A stretch of DNA of 64,000 nt, from the IMG/VR virus record IMGVR_UViG_2718218133_000001, one strand, 5' to 3'. Within the stretch, counting starts at the first letter, position 1. Every line of letters begins with the position of its first letter. This DNA is from a virus. Taxonomy: Duplodnaviria > Heunggongvirae > Uroviricota > Caudoviricetes. Of the stretch, positions 52,440 through 59,875 are shown piece by piece. The notes under the pieces are model-generated. The model saw only the letters and a program-made list of their open reading frames with translations. It was not told the origin of the DNA and searched no databases. Both the position numbers and the translations under genes were made by a program.

Positions 52440-52566
52440 TTTTTACCTATACAACAGTAAGTTGAACAACATCTGAGAACGGTATGCACTTTGTGATTTC
52501 CACACACACTGGTTTTGTTAATTAAAACCTGTAGCTTGCAATAAATAACGATAGTGGGCAGAAAAT

Positions 52567-52750
52567 ATGCTAATAGGCTATGTACGCATATAGACAAATG
52601 AACAAAACACAGCTATGCAGTGAAAAGCACTTGAAAGCGCAGGATGTGAGCTAATTTTTGCGAATAAGGCGAGCAGCAAAAAGGCTGGGCACCCTGGGTT
52701 AAAAAAGGTTCTGCGTATGCTTTCCAGAGGTGATACCCTAGTCTCGGGCT
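52567..52750 (+). pseudogene. decayed N-terminal fragment of a P1 Cin-type invertase gene
   Basis: ATGCTAATAGGCTATGTACGCATA then in-frame stops; after repair reads MLIGYVRI..STNEQNTA.Q..ALESAGCELIF..KKAGHPGLKKVLRMLSRGDTLV. Confidence 0.5.
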
Positions 52751-52874
52751 AGGGACAACATTTCGAGGACAGTTTTCATTAGCGGTCAGCAGGCGCTAGA
52801 TACATCGAATTGATGTGCCGCGCGATAAATGTACCTATTCTATCAAGATAAATTACACCGACGCGGCATTAGAA

Positions 52875-53447
52875 TTACAGCTCAGATTGAGTTTGGCGCT
52901 TCTCTACAGGATGATAACGATAAATCGTCGATACACCGATATCGTAAATAATTGCCAACTGTTTCCTGCTGTAGCCATTTTCGATCAACCTCGCTATTTG
53001 CTCATGTTGTTCTTTTGTCAACTTCGGGCGACGTCCGCCAATGCGTCCCTGTTCGCGTGCAGCTGCCAGTCCGGCCAGTGTTCTCTCAACAATTAATTCA
53101 CGTTCCATTTCTGCTAAAGCCCCCATGACGTGAAAAAAGAAACGCCCCATGGGTGTTGATGTGTCAATACTGTCTGTCAGACTACGGAAATTAACACCTT
53201 TTTCCCGCAACTCCTCTATAAGCGTGATAAGGTGTTTCATACTTCTGCCAAGCCTATCCAGCTTCCAGACAACCAGCGTATCTCCTTCTGATAACGTTCT
53301 GAGCAGCTTTTTCAAGCCTGGTCTGGCTGACTTTGTTCCGCTTATTTTATCTTCAAAAATCAGTTCACATCCTGCGCAGTTCAGTGCATTTCTTTGTAAA
53401 TCTGTGTTTTGGTCATTTGTTGACACACGAATGTAGCCAATTTGCAT
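52875..53447 (-). CDS. serine DNA invertase (Cin/Min/Gin/Hin family)
   Basis: 190 aa from ATG 53447; catalytic GYIRVSTNDQNTDLQ (Ser) and C-terminal HTH; adjacent to first crossover site. Confidence 0.85.
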   Translation of the reverse strand: MQIGYIRVSTNDQNTDLQRNALNCAGCELIFEDKISGTKSARPGLKKLLRTLSEGDTLVVWKLDRLGRSMKHLITLIEELREKGVNFRSLTDSIDTSTPMGRFFFHVMGALAEMERELIVERTLAGLAAAREQGRIGGRRPKLTKEQHEQIARLIENGYSRKQLAIIYDIGVSTIYRYHPVEKRQTQSEL

Positions 53448-53501
53448 GAAAAACAACCTCTTTGTTTAGTTAAAAATACATCGTTGGTATAGGTAGGGAT
53501 T

Positions 53502-53527
53502 AAGACTAAAACGTTGGTTTGGGGGAA
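53502..53527 (-). other. crossover site 1 (26 bp, core TT/AA at 53514-53515)
   Basis: Minus strand reads TTCCCCCAAACC-AA-CGTTTTAGTCTT, gix/cix-like half-sites. Confidence 0.55.
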
Positions 53528-53994
53528 GGCTCTGCATTGCCTGTTGGTGTACCTGTTCCATGGCCCTCAGCCACACCACCAACGGGGTGGCTAAAATGTA
53601 ACGGAGCAGCATTTTCTTCTGAAAAGTACCCAAATCTGGCAAAGGTTTACCCAACGTTAAAATTACCTGATTTACGCGGTGAGTTTATCCGTGGTTGGGA
53701 TGATGGGCGCGGGGTGGATGCGGGACGTGCTTTATTGAGCATTCAGACAGGAATGCTGGAAAAGCACCGACATATTGTTGTAGCCAATGATGGTTACGAC
53801 ACAAAAGATGAATGGGAGCTGGCGACAATTTTCAAAAAAACATACACACAAGGACGGGGCTTGATGCCTCAAATACAGGAGGGAATTTGATTCCATCACC
53901 GACACTTCATTCTCGAGGGAGTATTGGTAATACTGGCGGGAGTGAAACCCGTCCACGAAATATCGCATTTAATTACATCGTAAGGGCGGCATAA
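53516..53994 (+). pseudogene. promoterless tail-fibre tip cassette A, frameshifted
   Basis: Conserved N-term GEGSALPVGVPVPWP..; frame breaks near A7 run (~53832); conserved C-term ETRPRNIAFNYIVRAA in another frame. Confidence 0.4.
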
Positions 53995-54013
53995 AAACGT
54001 TGGTTTGGGGGAA
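53988..54013 (-). other. crossover site 2
   Basis: Same 26-bp pattern, core 54000-54001. Confidence 0.5.
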
Positions 54014-54502
54014 GGCTCTGCATTGCCTGTTGGCGTACCTGTTCCGTGGCCATCAGCCACACCTCCAACGGGGTGGCTGAAATGCAATGGTGCAGCATTT
54101 TCTTCTGAAAAGTACCCAAATCTGGCAAAGGCTTATCCCACCAATAAATTACCGGATTTACGGGGAGAATTTATTCGTGGCTGGGATGATGGGCGTGGCA
54201 TTGATCCTAGACGTGCCTTGCTAAGTCTTCAGAATGGAGGAGTGGAATCACACACCCACCAAGGGCAGCTCTTCAGAGTTAGTGATTATCGTACAAATGA
54301 AATACCAGCATCAGAAGTTATGGGAAGAAACTATCTTGCAAGCCTGACGCCGGGTGCTAATAGCCCACTTGATTTTGATGATTATCCTGTAGCTCTTATT
54401 CCAAATGGATATTTTGTCGGGAATCAGAGAACAACAGCATATGGGATAAATGAAACCCGTCCACGGAATATTGCATTTAATTACATCGTAAGGGCGGCAT
54501 AA
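54005..54502 (+). CDS. promoterless tail-fibre tip cassette B
   Basis: 165 aa; no ATG; conserved ends, unique middle. Confidence 0.5.
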   Translation: MGEGSALPVGVPVPWPSATPPTGWLKCNGAAFSSEKYPNLAKAYPTNKLPDLRGEFIRGWDDGRGIDPRRALLSLQNGGVESHTHQGQLFRVSDYRTNEIPASEVMGRNYLASLTPGANSPLDFDDYPVALIPNGYFVGNQRTTAYGINETRPRNIAFNYIVRAA

Positions 54503-54521
54503 AAACGTTGGTTTGGGGGAA
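54496..54521 (-). other. crossover site 3
   Basis: Core 54508-54509. Confidence 0.5.
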
Positions 54522-54941
54522 GGCTCTGCACTGCCTGTTGGTGTGCCCGTTCCGTGGCCCTTAGAAACACCACCAACGGGCTGGCTAAAATGTAACGGAG
54601 CAGCATTTTCTTCTGAAATGTATCCCAAACTGGCAAAAGCCTACCCCACCAATAAATTACCGGATTTACGCGGTGAATTTATCCGTGGCTGGGATGATGG
54701 GCGCGGGATTGATGCGGGACGTACCCTGCTTTCAGGGCAGGATGGTACAAGTTTTTCTCATTACGGAGGTAATTTCGACATTGGGTCTGGTCATTCAATC
54801 AATAACTATGACCAAATTGTTTCTAACCAACCAGGATTTTCCCGTTTTTCATTTGCAGGGCCTTCACGAGGTGATGGGGTTAATTATGTAACCATTCGTC
54901 CTCGTAACATTGCGTTTAATTATATCGTAAGGGCGGCATGA
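54513..54941 (+). CDS. promoterless tail-fibre tip cassette C
   Basis: 142 aa; conserved ends, unique middle. Confidence 0.5.
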   Translation: MGEGSALPVGVPVPWPLETPPTGWLKCNGAAFSSEMYPKLAKAYPTNKLPDLRGEFIRGWDDGRGIDAGRTLLSGQDGTSFSHYGGNFDIGSGHSINNYDQIVSNQPGFSRFSFAGPSRGDGVNYVTIRPRNIAFNYIVRAA

Positions 54942-54960
54942 AAACGTTGGTTTGGGAGAA
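54935..54960 (-). other. crossover site 4
   Basis: Core 54947-54948. Confidence 0.5.
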
Positions 54961-55449
54961 GGCTCTGCATTACCTGTTGGTGTCCCTGTTCCGTGGCCTT
55001 CAGCCACTCCGCCAACAGGCTGGCTGAAATGCAACGGTGCGGCTTTTTCTGCTGAAGAATACCCGGAACTGGCAAAGGCTTACCCGACAAATAAATTGCC
55101 TGATTTACGTGGTGAGTTCATTCGTGGCTGGGATGACGGGCGCGGGATTGATCCAGGTCGCTCTATTTTAAGCGAGCAAGGATATGCAACGGAGGATCAT
55201 GCTCACGGATTACCGTCAAAATCAACCGTAGCAACTGACAGCTCAATTAATTTCTACTTTGACGAGGCATGGGCTACTAGTGGTAATACGGGAGTTATCA
55301 GATGGGGGAACACAAGCGATGCAGGATTGCCAGCCCCTAATTATGGAACTTTTAAAACATATAAACAGTCCGTAGCTAATTTAGGTACTGCTGGCTTAGA
55401 AACCCGCCCTCGTAATATTGCATTTAATTATATTGTGAGGGCGGATTAA
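54952..55449 (+). CDS. promoterless tail-fibre tip cassette D
   Basis: 165 aa. Confidence 0.5.
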   Translation: MGEGSALPVGVPVPWPSATPPTGWLKCNGAAFSAEEYPELAKAYPTNKLPDLRGEFIRGWDDGRGIDPGRSILSEQGYATEDHAHGLPSKSTVATDSSINFYFDEAWATSGNTGVIRWGNTSDAGLPAPNYGTFKTYKQSVANLGTAGLETRPRNIAFNYIVRAD

Positions 55450-55454
55450 TTATA

Positions 55455-56066
55455 TCAACTGGCTGTAGAAAGTTGTTTTTCAGGCCAGTTGAGATCTGGT
55501 GCCGTGGTTAAATCCATCGCGTTCAGCTCGTCTATATAATCTAGCACGGAGTTAAGCTGCGTGGTTTCTGCCTGCGTCAACTTCCGTCCAGCCCGTAATT
55601 TCAACTGAATCAGACTAATGGAATCCATCGCAGTATCAATCAATGACTGACGTTTTGTTTCTGCTGCCTCTACAGCTGCACTATGTTGAGCCTCAGTATC
55701 AACCACCCATTTCTCTCCATCCCATTTGTCGTATGGTGTTAGCGGGGCGATAGTGGTTGTATTTTCCGGATAGTCACCCAACACCGTGATTTCTTCGGGA
55801 TTCCCTGTGTCAATGCTATAGACAGTTTCGCCACGATGATCTGGCACATACTCCCATGAACTTAAATCCTCTGAACGGAGAATCGCATAACCTGCTTTAT
55901 GTGAGCCTGGAGCATCCAAACAAGAATGTGCCGGAATACCAACGCCAACAGCAAGATATTCAGTTGATGCAGAAATATATTCCCGATTACCACCATCATA
56001 GTTATAAACGATAATGTTTCCTGCCTGTATGGCTATAAGTTCGCTATTTAATATCGCATTATCCAT
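55455..56066 (-). CDS. tail fibre assembly chaperone (Tfa/U-like)
   Basis: 203 aa; start overlaps stop of cassette E (TAATG). Confidence 0.65.
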   Translation of the reverse strand: MDNAILNSELIAIQAGNIIVYNYDGGNREYISASTEYLAVGVGIPAHSCLDAPGSHKAGYAILRSEDLSSWEYVPDHRGETVYSIDTGNPEEITVLGDYPENTTTIAPLTPYDKWDGEKWVVDTEAQHSAAVEAAETKRQSLIDTAMDSISLIQLKLRAGRKLTQAETTQLNSVLDYIDELNAMDLTTAPDLNWPEKQLSTAS

Positions 56067-56524
56067 TATGCTGCTCTCACAATATAATTGAAGGCAATGT
56101 TACGTGGGCGGGTTTCATTCCCCCCAGATAACTCCGTTCTGTATTGACTGGTAAATTTACCATTAATCGCTCCTTCTTGGACGGCGTTATCTGTCGACAA
56201 CAGGCTATCCCCCCCTCTGTCATTTGGCACCAATACCGTGTTATCCCACGCGTCCCATGACCGAATATTATGATAATGACTTCCTGTTAACCACCCCTGT
56301 ATGCTTAAGATGACCCTTCCCGCATCCACACCTCGCCCATCATCCCAACCACGGATAAACTCACCGCGTAAATCAGGTAATTTTAACGTTGGGTAAACCT
56401 TTGCCAGATTTGGGTACTTTTCAGAAGAAAATGCTGCGCCATTGCATTTCAGCCACCCCGTTGGAGGTGTGGCTGATGGCCACGGAACGGGCACGCCAAC
56501 GGGCAGTGCAGAGCCTTCCCCCAA
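56066..56524 (-). CDS. tail-fibre tip cassette E (coupled to tfa)
   Basis: 152 aa; same conserved ends. Confidence 0.5.
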   Translation of the reverse strand: MGEGSALPVGVPVPWPSATPPTGWLKCNGAAFSSEKYPNLAKVYPTLKLPDLRGEFIRGWDDGRGVDAGRVILSIQGWLTGSHYHNIRSWDAWDNTVLVPNDRGGDSLLSTDNAVQEGAINGKFTSQYRTELSGGNETRPRNIAFNYIVRAA

Positions 56525-56541
56525 ACCAACGTTTTATGCCG
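56516..56541 (+). other. crossover site 5
   Basis: TTCCCCCAAACC-AA-CGTTTTATGCCG; opposite orientation to sites 1-4. Confidence 0.5.
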
Positions 56542-56797
56542 CCCTTACGATGTAATTAAATGCAATGTTACGAGGACGATGGTTACATATTACGACCATC
56601 AATCGTGAATGTCCAGTATAATGAAAAACTCAATAATTCCGTCTTAGGCTGTAGATAATACTTGTCATAGTTATGATTGAATGACCAGACTCAATGTCGA
56701 AATTACCTCCGTAAAGAAAACAATATGTCTGATCCTGCCATTCTGAATAGCAGTACGTCCAGATCAATCCCCGCCCATCATCCCAGCCGCGATAAAT
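56530..56797 (-). pseudogene. degenerate remainder of cassette F (C-type) currently joined to S
   Basis: DNA alignable to cassette C but with indels; S reading frame stops early at 56798. Confidence 0.4.
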
Positions 56798-59377
56798 TCA
56801 CCCGTAAATCCGGTAATTTATTGTGGGTAGCCTTTGCCAGTTTGGGATACTTTCAGAAGAAAATGCTGCACCGTTGCATTTCAGCCACCCCGTTGGAGGT
56901 GTGGCTGATGGCCACGGAACGGGCACGCCAACAGGCAGTGCAGAGCCTTCCCCCAAACCAAGGTAATTAAGAACGCTCTGAATACTGGGCTTACTAAGAA
57001 TTGCACGTCCAACACTTGTCAGTGCAGTTAACGCGGCACGATCAACCCCTGTGAAATAAGGGAGTTTATCTGCTGCGGTAGCTAGTGCCGCTAGAGCAGT
57101 GAGCGTAGCGTCTGCCGCTTGCTTTCCATTAGCCAAATCATATGCAGCCTTGACAGCTTTCGGTGTAGCGGCCAGCACTTCAGACGTGCTGTTAGTGGCA
57201 CTACTGAGCTGAGTGATGCCTTTCGCTGTCAATGAAGCTGTTGGCACACCAGTAATCTGATTCCAGGGATGTGTATGACTGGATGGTGCTTTTTCGGCTG
57301 CTAGATCGTATGCAGCTTTAACCGCTTTTGGCGTTGCAGCTAATGTTTCAGAAGTGCTGTTGGTGTCGCTACTGAGCTGAACTATCCCTTTTTGTGTCGT
57401 GGTTGCATCCTGGGCTGTATACTTCCCGTTAGCCAGGTCATATGCAGCCTTGACAGCTTTCGGTGTGGCGGCCAGCACTTCAGACGTGCTGTTAGTGGCA
57501 CTACTGAGCTGAGTGATGCCTTTCGCTGTCAATGAAGCTGTTGGCACACCAGTGATCTGATTCCAGGGATGTGTATGACTGGATGGTGCCTTTCCGGCTG
57601 CTAGATCGTATGCAGCTTTAACCGCTTTTGGCGTTGCAGCTAATGTTTCAGAAGTGCTGTTGGTGTCGCTACTGAGCTGAACTATCCCTTTTTGTGTCGT
57701 GGTTGCATCCTGGGCTGTATACTTCCCGTTAGCCAGGTCATATGCAGCCTTGACAGCTTTCGGTGTGGCGGCCAGCACTTCAGACGTGCTGTTAGTGGCA
57801 CTACTGAGCTGAGTGATGCCTTTCGCTGTCAATGAAGCTGTTGGCACACCAGTGATCTGATTCCAGGGATGTGTATGACTGGATGGTGCCTTTCCGGCTG
57901 CTAGATCGTATGCAGCTTTAACTGCTTTTGGCGTTGCAGCTAATGTTTCAGAAGTGCTGTTGGTGTCGCTACTGAGCTGAACTATCCCTTTTTGTGTCGT
58001 GGTTGCATCCTGGGCTGTATACTTCCCGTTAGCCAGGTCATATGCAGCCTTGACAGCTTTCGGTGTGGCGGCCAGCACTTCAGACGTGCTGTTAGTGGCA
58101 CTACTGAGCTGAGTGATGCCTTTCGCTGTCAATGAAGCTGTTGGCACACCAGTGATCTGATTCCAGGGATGTGTATGACTGGATGGTGCCTTTCCGGCTG
58201 CTAGATCGTATGCAGCTTTAACCGCTTTTGGCGTTGCAGCTAATGTTTCAGAAGTGCTGTTGGTGTCGCTACTGAGCTGAACTATCCCTTTTTGTGTCGT
58301 GGTTGCATCCTGGGCTGTATACTTCCCGTTAGCCAGGTCATATGCAGCCTTGACAGCTTTCGGTGTGGCGGCCAGCACTTCAGACGTGCTGTTAGTGGCA
58401 CTACTGAGCTGAGTGATGCCTTTCGCTGTCAATGAAGCTGTTGGCACACCAGTGATCTGATTCCAGGGATGTGTATGACTGGATGGTGCCTTTCCGGCTG
58501 CTAGATCGTATGCAGCTTTAACCGCTTTTGGCGTTGCAGCTAATGTTTCAGAAGTGCTGTTGGTGTCGCTACTGAGCTGAACTATCCCTTTTTGTGTCGT
58601 GGTTGCATCCTGGGCCGTATACTTCCCGTTAGCCAGGTCATATGCAGCCTTGACAGCTTTCGGTGTGGCGGCCAGCACTTCGGACGTGCTGTTAGTAGCA
58701 CTGCTGAGCTGAACTAATCCCTTTTGCGTTGTGCTTGCATCCTGCGCCGTATACTTGCTTTTCGCCAGATCGTAGGCTTTTTTAACTGCCAGCGAACTTG
58801 CAGCGACATCACTTCTGGTACTGGTTACAGAGTCGGAAATTTCAATGCCTATCGTGAGATCGATGCGGTCGGATACATCTATCATTTCCTGAGTAATAGC
58901 AGATACGCCAGCAGGGATATTCACCGTACAAACAAGCAGTTCCCCATCTCCTAACTGATATGAATCGGTATAGGTTCTGGCAACAAATTCAGCTGCATGA
59001 ATATGTGACGCGGTATTCACCTGATAGGTATCTTCTCCAAGAAGGTATCTTCCCTTCAGCACAATTGCATATTTCTTGCCTGCGTTAAGTGCAAGAGAGA
59101 TATCCTTACGATGCTGAATAGTTACCTGGTAGAATTCACCAATATCCACTGACGCCGCGCCAGCGGTTTTATCTCCATCCACTGAGGTGATTAACAGGTT
59201 CATCCCACCGCCAGGCTTAGGCAAGAAACCAGCATAAAATCCCGGGTCAACAATTCCCCTGAATTTTCGGTTTAGAGCGGCTGACAGATATGGTTCGTGG
59301 TATTGCACATCAGCCACCAGAGCCAACGACTCGGGTGATGGGTAAGTAACCGATGTAACAACTGTAACGTCATTCAT
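56798..59377 (-). CDS. tail fibre protein S (current configuration fused to cassette F)
   Basis: 859 aa from ATG 59377 (AAGGA RBS); tail-fibre repeats KAVKAAYDLA..TTQKGIVQLSS; C-terminus ends prematurely inside cassette F. Confidence 0.8.
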   Translation of the reverse strand: MNDVTVVTSVTYPSPESLALVADVQYHEPYLSAALNRKFRGIVDPGFYAGFLPKPGGGMNLLITSVDGDKTAGAASVDIGEFYQVTIQHRKDISLALNAGKKYAIVLKGRYLLGEDTYQVNTASHIHAAEFVARTYTDSYQLGDGELLVCTVNIPAGVSAITQEMIDVSDRIDLTIGIEISDSVTSTRSDVAASSLAVKKAYDLAKSKYTAQDASTTQKGLVQLSSATNSTSEVLAATPKAVKAAYDLANGKYTAQDATTTQKGIVQLSSDTNSTSETLAATPKAVKAAYDLAAGKAPSSHTHPWNQITGVPTASLTAKGITQLSSATNSTSEVLAATPKAVKAAYDLANGKYTAQDATTTQKGIVQLSSDTNSTSETLAATPKAVKAAYDLAAGKAPSSHTHPWNQITGVPTASLTAKGITQLSSATNSTSEVLAATPKAVKAAYDLANGKYTAQDATTTQKGIVQLSSDTNSTSETLAATPKAVKAAYDLAAGKAPSSHTHPWNQITGVPTASLTAKGITQLSSATNSTSEVLAATPKAVKAAYDLANGKYTAQDATTTQKGIVQLSSDTNSTSETLAATPKAVKAAYDLAAGKAPSSHTHPWNQITGVPTASLTAKGITQLSSATNSTSEVLAATPKAVKAAYDLANGKYTAQDATTTQKGIVQLSSDTNSTSETLAATPKAVKAAYDLAAEKAPSSHTHPWNQITGVPTASLTAKGITQLSSATNSTSEVLAATPKAVKAAYDLANGKQAADATLTALAALATAADKLPYFTGVDRAALTALTSVGRAILSKPSIQSVLNYLGLGEGSALPVGVPVPWPSATPPTGWLKCNGAAFSSESIPNWQRLPTINYRIYG
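56948..56973 (+). other. crossover site 6 at S constant/variable junction
   Basis: TTCCCCCAAACC-AA-GGTAATTAAGAA; left half-site identical to site 5. Confidence 0.5.
57111..58760. repeat. about 5.5 tandem copies of a 300-bp unit inside S
   Basis: Unit boundaries at 57121/57421/57721/58021/58321/58621; copies 2-5 differ by only a few bases. Confidence 0.85.
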
Positions 59378-59388
59378 CAAGCATATCC

Positions 59389-59823
59389 TTATGCTGTAGT
59401 CGAGTTTATGGCCATAACTGCGGTATATGTTTTGCCCACATACAGCGAGTCTTCCTGGACACAAATAATGGCGATTGGCTTATTCTCGTTATCCAGAACA
59501 ACCAGAGTGTTGAATGGGTAGTTTTTCCCTTCCTGCAACTGACTTTGATCAAGGTCCATTCGGACAGTAATTATCCCGCCTGAGTAGGTTGGGACGAGGT
59601 TGATGGTGCAAAATTGACTGGTCAGTTCTGCCAGATCGAAAGCCTTTGGCAGTTCTCCAATCTCATAAGTGCCATCTCCTTTCTTAGTAACCAGTGAACT
59701 GGTACCGAAAACGGCCTTGCTGATTAAAAATCGAGAGCCTTTGTTAATGGACGATTCAGCGCGCCGCTGATAGTAATAGTCCAACAACTGACTCTTATAG
59801 AGGTTTGTTGAGACGTCAGACAT
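59389..59823 (-). CDS. tail/baseplate protein upstream of S
   Basis: 144 aa; position corresponds to P1 R. Confidence 0.35.
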   Translation of the reverse strand: MSDVSTNLYKSQLLDYYYQRRAESSINKGSRFLISKAVFGTSSLVTKKGDGTYEIGELPKAFDLAELTSQFCTINLVPTYSGGIITVRMDLDQSQLQEGKNYPFNTLVVLDNENKPIAIICVQEDSLYVGKTYTAVMAINSTTA

Positions 59824-59875
59824 GATTTTCCCTAATCAATGTTGTGAAGCCTCATTGTAAGATAAGTAACTTGTC

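Follow-up and report, generated by a model that had tools for sequence, protein, structure and literature searches.

Does the array of tail-fibre tip cassettes in this stretch of viral DNA (the window, 64,000 nucleotides in all) belong with the C-segment of phage P1 or with the Min system of plasmid p15B, and what kind of fibre does it encode at present? Very probably, the locus is a multiple DNA inversion system of the p15B Min type, situated within the tail-fibre operon of a P1-like phage-plasmid. The Min system of p15B from E. coli 15T- was reportedly described by Sandmeier, Iida, Arber and colleagues in 1990-1992 and is said to be deposited as GenBank X62121; the system is therefore already known, and the interest of the locus is correspondingly low. 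The comparison with p15B was made via secondary sources, namely Table 3 of PMC3241671, PMC2481393 and the notes in the P1 GenBank record.

The crossover sites provide the most direct connection with p15B. When up to one mismatch is allowed, the 14-mer TTCCCCCAAACCAA is found six times in the window, always at one of the six 26-bp sites (Table 1), and never in 100 shuffled sequences. All six sites contain the AA core, the left half-site of each leads into a cassette beginning GLGEGSALPVGVPVPWP, and sites 1-4 are in the minus and sites 5 and 6 in the plus orientation; the AA/TT core and the four-against-two arrangement described in the earlier note are thus confirmed by site mapping. The same note had assigned a common left half-site to six 26-bp sites; the number of sites stands, but the exact left half is present in only five of them, since site 4 has one mismatch (TTCTCCCAAACC). 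The p15B-type mix form, TTCCCC(C/T)AAACC AA (C/G)GT..., in six 26-bp sites with a 2-bp AA core, is found in the window. Compared with the p15B mix sites, one of the window's six sites is identical and the others are 1-2 nt off; sites 2 and 3 are each 1 nt apart from mixMr''N', and site 6 is 1 nt apart from mixQ''R' (PMC3241671, Table 3). At site 6, the crossover falls within the L-G codons of ...LNYLGLGEG.

The min product matches Pfam Resolvase (2e-51) and HTH_7 (3e-15), is 73% identical to P1 Cin (138/190) and agrees exactly with UniRef Q05517_ECOLX ('DNA-invertase'), which we take to be the p15B entry; the same sequence is present on about 1000 contigs. In the 54 bp from site 1 to the min start codon, a search for a sigma-70-like promoter found none. 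The enhancer-like stretch is identical to the annotated P1 cin enhancer at 58 of 72 positions and occupies an equal position in the gene; a degenerate motif detects one Fis-like 15-mer in it, conserved at gene coordinate 71, where two Fis sites are expected. The remnant psi-cin is 88-89% identical to the 5' DNA of P1 cin, and one of its stops stands in place of the catalytic serine codon (RVSTNEQ to RI*TNEQ). According to a note in the P1 record, p15B has a matching cin remnant at nt 7147-7408, and the spacing of psi-cin and the enhancer-like stretch agrees with the p15B coordinates in that record. DNA of the P1 C-segment (Sv, Sv', U, U'; P1 32225-36480) has no match in the window. Membership of the P1 Cin/C-segment system is ruled out by the six sites, the cin remnant with stops and this missing match, and the classification first proposed, Min-like and not C-segment-like, is upheld by the Q05517 invertase, the p15B-like sites, the dead cin, the lack of C-segment DNA and the 240 isomers considered below.

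Table 1. Features of the inversion array and its neighbourhood (window coordinates; left half-site, core and right half-site are given for each crossover site).
Feature	Positions	Strand	Description
psi-cin, 5' remnant of P1-type cin	52567..52743	+	about 59 codons, two in-frame stops
min, serine DNA invertase, Din family (Hin/Gin/Cin/Pin/Min)	52875..53447	-	190 aa; transcription points away from array
Predicted recombinational enhancer (Fis-binding)	53358..53429	-	inside min 5' end; putative, from sequence
Site 1	53502-53527	-	TTCCCCCAAACC AA CGTTTTAGTCTT; array boundary on min side; equals p15B mixMl''L' (PMC3241671, Table 3)
Cassette A	53516..53994	+	159-codon tip, disabled by 1-nt deletion in G5 run (53856-53859)
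Site 2	53988-54013	-	TTCCCCCAAACC AA CGTTTTTATGCC
Cassette B	54002..54502	+	intact, 166 codons from crossover; HxH motif (ESHTHQ)
Site 3	54496-54521	-	TTCCCCCAAACC AA CGTTTTTATGCC
Cassette C	54510..54941	+	intact, 143 codons from crossover
Site 4	54935-54960	-	TTCTCCCAAACC AA CGTTTTCATGCC; left half equals pix left half of e14 Pin
Cassette D	54949..55449	+	intact, 166 codons from crossover; one end of double-ended segment
tfa, tail-fibre assembly (chaperone) gene	55455..56066	-	203 aa; Pfam Caudo_TAP 3e-30
Cassette E	56066..56527	-	intact, 153 codons from crossover; other end of double-ended segment
Site 5	56516-56541	+	TTCCCCCAAACC AA CGTTTTATGCCG
Cassette F	56534..56959	-	decayed C-type pseudo-cassette, at present joined to constant part
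Site 6	56948-56973	+	TTCCCCCAAACC AA GGTAATTAAGAA; junction with constant part Sc
Sc, constant 5' part of tail-fibre gene S	56960..59377	-	806 codons
Late promoter LPs	59854..59872	-	upstream of R; exact 19-mer match to P1 LPs annotation

The sites divide the array into four single-cassette segments (A, B, C and F) and one double-ended segment (D-tfa-E), with the cassette-side half-site at the start of every cassette, and the p15B site names (Ml, Mr, N, O, P, Q) imply an equal set of segments. A breadth-first search over inversions reached 240 configurations, and 240 isomers are also quoted for p15B Min (PMC2481393). Cassettes A, B, C and D can each be brought to Sc by one inversion (site 6 with one of sites 1-4), and only E needs two; the sequential inversions that the earlier note had supposed for every tip are thus needed for E alone. 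Isomers with a tip-less S amount to 48 of the 240 through F, or to 96 of the 240 if A is truly broken too; in half of the isomers, late transcription runs antisense to tfa.

The constant part Sc contains a 300-bp tandem repeat in 5.3 copies (57122-58712, TRF) and twelve Pfam Phage_fiber_2 matches, and the Sc region is 95.5% identical to the P1 S 5' end, R and gene 16. LPs is the only late promoter able to drive R, S and the parts of the array downstream; the P1 late-promoter motif was not found within 52875-59377, and sigma-70-like matches that might act as internal promoters are no commoner there than in shuffled sequence. The tfa gene, named 'tail fiber assembly protein' in the matched database sources, is present as a single copy and its ATG overlaps the stop codon of cassette E as TAATG. 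It lies directly 3' of E only, in agreement with the earlier view that E alone is coupled to it.

Intact reading frames are found in B, C, D and E only, all four of which end RPRNIAFNYIVRA(A/D). Relative to about 65 E. coli records to which it is 99.6% identical, cassette A lacks one G of a G5 run, and this loss puts its conserved C-terminus out of frame; with the G put back, it is an intact tip ending RPRNIAFNYIVRAA. Cassette F still has its crossover site in perfect form, with full conservation of the first 109 nt, but it is 84% identical to the C type with 22 gap positions, and its reading frame breaks off after 36 codons. Among 5426 E. coli genomes, no full-length match closer than 84% was found for it, and a 40-nt exact search of the GTDB representative genomes gave no match to its core. 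The initial description of all cassettes as a common N- and C-terminus around a distinct core therefore needs amendment: the N-terminal start holds, whereas the C-terminus is in frame in B-E only and frameshifted in A, and F is a decayed C-type copy instead of a distinct tip. Cassettes C, D and E have counterparts of 100% identity in other records; in plasmid L008, the identical copy of C is inverted and situated across D-tfa-E. At present, the S reading frame extends from 59377 to 56798 (859 aa) and stops 53 codons past the crossover, and the protein has no tip because the decayed cassette F is now joined to Sc. As judged from the reading frames, the present isomer thus encodes a fibre without a tip, and B, C, D and E are the usable tips, A being off and F a dead copy. 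Two defective cassettes out of six, together with the truncated fibre of the present isomer, could mean that the module is decaying.

By analogy with characterized invertases, we infer the strand-exchange chemistry, the Fis dependence and the current activity of the Min system. As a small serine invertase, Min would bind as dimers at two 26-bp sites in inverted orientation and, assisted by host Fis on the enhancer in the min 5' end, would cut both sites at the central AA/TT, rotate the ends by 180 degrees and rejoin them. Because the crossover is in frame at ...L|GLGEG, the cassette beside site 6 would become the C-terminal tip of S, and the tip-bearing S would be expressed from LPs. A choice among six cassettes behind a constant fibre gene would vary the host range.

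The region has matches in 2773 of the 5426 complete E. coli genomes and in 554 plasmid records. Among related plasmids, these cassettes recur at 99-100% identity but are ordered and oriented differently, in arrays of 2-9 sites; inversion has therefore happened in nature. For example, cassettes C (100%) and A (96-99.6%) lie to the left of D-tfa-E and point right in the window, and to its right and pointing left in L002, L005 and L008; in pMCR_SCKP-LL83, whose region is reported to be 99% identical to p15B min, the D-tfa-E segment itself is flipped relative to the window. In all mapped arrays, the cassettes on either side of the double-ended segment point opposite ways, as the half-site rule predicts. 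Natural isomers alone are nevertheless no proof of site-specific exchange, because the conserved cassette starts are inverted repeats (110-240 bp, 80-91% identical), by which each left-hand cassette is paired with E and F, and these could support RecA-dependent inversion. Homologous recombination between the starts might then be the main cause of rearrangement in place of Min. The complementarity that joins the left-hand cassettes to E and F (80-91% over 113-240 nt) is in line with such a process, as is the cassette-side half-site of A, which varies across plasmids (TTCCCCC, TTCTCCC, TTCCCCT) around a core that is 99.5% identical; this variation points to a degree of gene conversion in the conserved starts. 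However, repeats diverged by 10-20% are poor RecA substrates, an intact invertase identical to UniRef Q05517 adjoins the array, the AA core and 12-bp half-site are kept in six of six sites, and rearrangement mainly through RecA is in our judgement quite improbable. The p15B Min system is, moreover, cited as a serine-recombinase inverter that generates multiple inversions (PMC6109161).

A further possibility is that the array is a fossil, the features of which persist although switching or infective virions have been lost in the present element. The breakage of cassettes A and F, the truncation of the expressed S and the negative promoter search for min would all fit this reading, and P1-like plasmids with impaired tail-fibre switches have been described (PMC6906374). 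On the other hand, min is full length and identical to the sequence on about 1000 contigs, the six sites are intact, as are four cassettes, tfa, R, Sc and LPs, and a complete fibre could be restored by a single inversion, so that a fossil array seems unlikely. It is scarcely credible that a mixed population gave collapsed or chimeric repeats as an artefact of assembly. Short-read contigs of related elements do often end within the array (L010-L016), and frameshifts at the Sc junction are frequent among long-read RefSeq plasmids, but many independent complete plasmids (2-9 sites) share this organisation and its flanks, the reading frames of B-E are clean, and other records contain fully identical counterparts of C, D and E.

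A preferential breakage of fused cassettes was also considered and judged not to be robust. In the RefSeq complete plasmids together with the window, five of the eight cassettes fused to Sc were broken, compared with about 2 of the 31 that were not fused, but at least eight of ten fused cassettes were intact at IMG/VR loci with Min-like invertases. The RefSeq excess is probably due to long-read consensus errors at a heterogeneous junction, or to chance. The criterion for intactness (N[YF]xx[RK] at the C-terminus) misclassifies the 113-123-aa tips of chromosomal Pin-like prophages, and those counts were excluded.

As a p15B-type Min locus, the array confirms that the window is a P1-like phage-plasmid with a host-range shuffler of a kind known for more than 30 years, and it opens no new question. 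A more elaborate model, in which the array serves as a switch of both infectivity (on/off) and host range, with F kept as a null position and tfa antisense as a second layer, is very improbable; if it were true, a fixed share of the isomers, those with F as the null position, would make tip-less, non-adsorbing fibres. With regard to annotation, the short 'phage tail protein' genes here are promoterless alternative 3' ends of S and not independent genes, the truncated S is one isomer of 240, and the pseudogene look and contig breaks of the region are expected consequences of the switch. In P1-derived delivery vectors, the receptor repertoire would be set by the cassettes, with B, C, D and E usable and A repairable by one base.

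The window shares with p15B the exact Q05517 invertase, six sites with the AA core and p15B half-sites, a double-ended segment of about 1.6 kb with four single-cassette segments (240 isomers, six alternative 3' ends), an invertible region of about 3.45 kb and a psi-cin that adjoins min in a P1-like backbone from which the Cin system has been replaced, the window flanks being 88-95% identical to P1. By contrast, the distance between the S 5' region and psi-cin exceeds that implied by the p15B coordinates by about 513 bp, probably owing to additional 300-bp repeats in Sc; TTCCCCTAAACC, found in four p15B sites, is absent from the window; and the cassette repertoire is another one (B rare, F decayed), with two defective tips. 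The window was therefore not accepted as p15B itself, since site sequences and interval lengths differ. In pMCR_SCKP-LL83 (MF510496) and other P1/P7-like Min regions, the flanks, invertase family and D-tfa-E module are the same and cassettes A, C, D and E share 98-100% identity with those of the window, whereas the number of sites varies (2-9), as do order and orientation.

More distant relatives share single elements of this organisation. Min shares 83-97% identity with the invertases of e14 Pin and chromosomal Pin-like prophages, the pix left half-site (TTCTCCCAAACC) recurs in window site 4, and collar-type tip cassettes are likewise combined with a single tfa, sense or antisense by orientation; however, these are usually simple flip-flop switches with two sites and two alternative tips. 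The P1 Cin/C-segment and Mu Gin/G-segment systems also have a serine invertase, 26-bp sites, an enhancer in the invertase gene and a constant S part fused to alternative 3' parts, but they have two sites and two large ends (Sv, Sv') with a U or U' chaperone gene on each, and P1 cin is transcribed towards its segment, unlike min. Overlapping invertible segments that choose the C-terminal end of a surface-recognition protein are found in the R64 shufflon (Rci) and the Rin shufflon of Bifidobacterium prophages, which have no sequence relationship to the window locus. In the R64 shufflon, the tyrosine recombinase Rci acts on sfx sites, and the protein altered is PilV at the pilus tip rather than a phage fibre; a shufflon of this type is ruled out by the adjoining recombinase, which is of the serine (resolvase/invertase) type.

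The cassettes themselves resemble the T4 gp37 tip (PDB 2XGF, 5e-18), with matches at the collar N-terminus and at the C-terminal NIAFNYIVR. Cassette B matches Pfam Collar (2e-15) and 2XGF (5e-18). Cassette residues 6-91 align with gp37 tip residues 27-106, HxH included, and the final 22 with the gp37 C-terminus. By these alignments, the shared cassette termini are the counterparts of the collar region at the N-terminus and of the extreme C-terminus of the gp37 tip, and the variable core would be the receptor-binding part. The window cassettes are much shorter (143-166 aa) and have other cores, whereas the T4 tip is single, fixed and without inversion.

A multiple DNA inversion system of the Min type (table below) occupies the segment bounded at one end by the lyd and dar genes and at the other by the 5′ end of the tail-fibre gene S, R, gene 16 and bplA. 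These flanks are 88-95% identical to P1, and comparison with P1 reveals no P1 C-segment DNA in the window. The crossover sites are built on the 12-mer TTCCCCCAAACC, which is present in the window as five exact copies and one copy with a single mismatch (TTCTCCCAAACC, at site s4), all six of them within 53.5-57.0 kb; the 14-mer formed by this half-site and the AA core, with at most one mismatch allowed, is matched six times in the window versus none in 100 shuffles. The six sites proposed in the earlier note are therefore present, with the left half-site shared exactly by five of them, and the arrangement of four sites in one orientation (s1-s4) and two in the other (s5 and s6) is confirmed. 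At 6/6 sites a cassette starts with the shared half-site, the codons past the core reading GLGEGSALPVGVPVPWP..., and the other half-site is the end of the preceding cassette, stop codon included, at s2-s5, the min-side flank at s1, and the constant part of the fibre gene at s6.

Features of the inversion region; site sequences are written with the shared half-site first, then the AA core, then the other half
Feature	Coordinates	Strand	Description
psi-cin	52567-52743		remnant of P1-type cin, on plus-strand map, beside min
min	52875-53447	minus	serine DNA invertase gene
s1	53502-53527	minus	TTCCCCCAAACC AA CGTTTTAGTCTT
Cassette A			right of s1, pointing right
s2	53988-54013	minus	shared half + AA CGTTTTTATGCC
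Cassette B			right of s2, pointing right
s3	54496-54521	minus	identical to s2
Cassette C			right of s3, pointing right
s4	54935-54960	minus	TTCTCCCAAACC AA CGTTTTCATGCC
Cassette D			right of s4, pointing right
tfa	55455-56066	minus	between cassettes D and E
Cassette E		minus	between tfa and s5
s5	56516-56541	plus	shared half + AA CGTTTTATGCCG
Cassette F		minus	between s5 and s6
s6	56948-56973	plus	shared half + AA GGTAATTAAGAA
Sc	56960-59377	minus	constant 5′ part of S, after s6 on the map
R	59389-59823	minus	
LPs	59854-59872	minus	late promoter, 19-mer exactly matching P1

Six mix crossover sites have been listed for the P1-related E. coli plasmid p15B (PMC3241671, Table 3): s1 is identical to mixMl''L', s6 is 1 nt off mixQ''R', and s2 and s3 are each 1 nt off mixMr''N', and the left half of s4 is the half-site of pix, the Pin site of e14. 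The p15B site names show that one segment has a cassette at each end (Ml, Mr) and that four are single (N, O, P, Q) (PMC3241671), and 240 isomers are possible for its Min system (PMC2481393). When the five segments between the six sites were modelled with inversion allowed only between oppositely oriented sites, exactly 240 configurations were reached from the window arrangement; this agreement and the identity of s1 uphold the assignment to a Min-like, p15B-type system. Such systems are already known: p15B itself was described in 1990-92, and Min-like regions of P1/P7-like plasmids have been noted since. The region has matches in 554 plasmid records and, among 5426 complete E. coli genomes, in 2773. 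In the P1 GenBank record, p15B coordinates are noted for the homologues of the cin 5′ region, the cin enhancer and the S 5′ region. Measured from psi-cin, the enhancer-like stretch in min lies equally far away in the two elements (614-685 bp), and the S 5′ region lies about 513 bp farther off in the window, which rules out p15B itself and indicates a relative of it.

The min product is a 190-aa serine recombinase of the resolvase/invertase type with a C-terminal helix-turn-helix, which is identical to the UniRef entry Q05517_ECOLX ("DNA-invertase"), recorded on approximately 1000 contigs, and shares 138 of 190 residues with P1 Cin. A consensus promoter scan recognised none for min. The adjoining psi-cin is what remains of the 5′ part of a true cin. 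It shares 88-89% identity with P1 and contains two in-frame stops, one of them at the catalytic serine codon; it is a scar from a Cin system that was replaced by one of the Pin/Min type. Inside min, the stretch 53358-53429 is identical to the annotated cin enhancer at 58 of 72 positions, with one Fis-like 15-mer conserved, and is predicted to be the recombinational enhancer.

The earlier note described common ends around a distinct core for all six cassettes. Four of them, B, C, D and E, are uninterrupted reading frames (166, 143, 166 and 153 codons, respectively, each ending RPRNIAFNYIVRA(A/D)); A is frameshifted and F is decayed. A G5 run in cassette A is short of one G at 53856-53859 relative to about 65 E. 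coli records of 99.6% identity, and re-adding this G yields an intact 159-codon tip; the 1-nt deletion could be a homopolymer sequencing error. Cassette F is a C-type paralogue that has decayed. Its identity to the C type is 84%, 22 positions are gaps, and the indels run along the full length and mostly lie outside homopolymers. A search of the 5426 complete E. coli genomes and of the GTDB representatives brought up no closer relative. Sc is currently joined to cassette F, so that S now reads as an 859-aa frame that ends 53 codons past the crossover, without a tip.

The cassettes match the Pfam phage tail collar domain. The T4 gp37 receptor-binding tip (PDB 2XGF, 5e-18) aligns with them at two places, namely, the N-terminal collar region through an HxH motif and the final 22 residues, which correspond to the C-terminus of gp37, NIAFNYIVR. 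The conserved termini around a variable core that the earlier note described agree with this two-place alignment. Given the gp37 fold in the 2XGF structure, the variable core is presumably the distal receptor-binding part. In Sc, a 300-bp near-perfect tandem repeat (57122-58712; 5.3 copies, 98% matches) specifies 100-aa shaft modules (Pfam Phage_fiber_2 x12); since S is between 2112 and 3015 nt long in related plasmids, fibre length appears to change by whole repeat units. The tail-fibre assembly gene tfa (Caudo_TAP family) has an ATG that overlaps the stop codon of cassette E and is translationally coupled to this cassette only; the earlier note had likewise coupled the single tfa to E alone.

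A motif scan found a single P1-type late promoter upstream of the array, LPs, and none inside it. Late transcription from LPs would pass through R and then S, and the cassette abutting s6 would form the tip of S. The mechanism of Hin, Gin and Cin, as set out in PMC3798978, serves as the model for Min action: Min would pair two inverted sites with the Fis-bound enhancer, cut at the AA/TT core and exchange the strands through subunit rotation. The most likely working of the locus would be transcription of S from LPs with a tip switched by Min. By enumeration from the present configuration, a single inversion brings any of cassettes A, B, C and D to Sc, and two bring E there; the sequential inversions envisaged for each tip are thus needed for E and not for A-D. 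The same enumeration places tfa on the LPs transcript only when the double-ended D-tfa-E segment is turned with E towards Sc, which is the case in half of the isomers. Both P1 late promoters flanking the region, LPdar (52148) and LPs (59872), are conserved on the minus strand, and the -22 box AAGTTACTT is present in both.

Sites and cassettes were also mapped in seven related RefSeq plasmids, in IMG/VR contigs and in pMCR_SCKP-LL83, the region of which has been reported to be 99% identical to p15B min (PMC5786510); each mapped array contains 2 to 9 sites. Cassettes C and A lie on the min side of D-tfa-E and point right in the window, and they lie on the Sc side and point left in three related elements (L002, L005 and L008); across these differing placements, C is 100% identical over 432 nt and A is 96-99.6% identical. 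D-tfa-E is flipped in pMCR_SCKP-LL83 relative to the window, and the single tfa occurs both sense and antisense to the fibre gene (46 loci). In all mapped arrays, cassettes on opposite sides of the double-ended segment face opposite ways, exactly as the half-site rule predicts. Read from these related elements, the differing orders and orientations record historical inversions in nature, which are compatible with Min-mediated exchange and with homologous recombination within the conserved cassette starts alike.

A proneness of Sc-fused cassettes to frameshifts was considered and rejected: 5/8 are frameshifted in RefSeq complete plasmids plus the window, and at least 8 of 10 are intact in IMG/VR loci. 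The excess is put down either to chance or to errors in the consensus where the junction is heterogeneous. Several long-read complete plasmids (L001, L003, L007 and L008) carry a frameshifted Sc-joined cassette beside intact silent ones (compare 56798-56959 in the window), a pattern absent from the IMG/VR contigs; such junction frameshifts may have arisen as artefacts when reads from a mixture of isomers were polished. Short-read IMG/VR contigs encoding an identical Min (L010-L016) often end in the array, 0.4-4.9 kb from min, as expected of repeats whose arrangement also differs between cells. In plasmid pe1-39_A (L002, 8630-10881), the IS21-family element ISEc10 (istA, istB) lies inside a long cassette array with at least seven sites. 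Among the chromosomal Pin-like prophage loci (L018-L089), in which the tips are 113-123 aa long and lack the NYIVR C-terminus of the Min cassettes, many are two-site systems with one tfa only, and tfa is antisense to the fibre gene in about a third of the sampled configurations.
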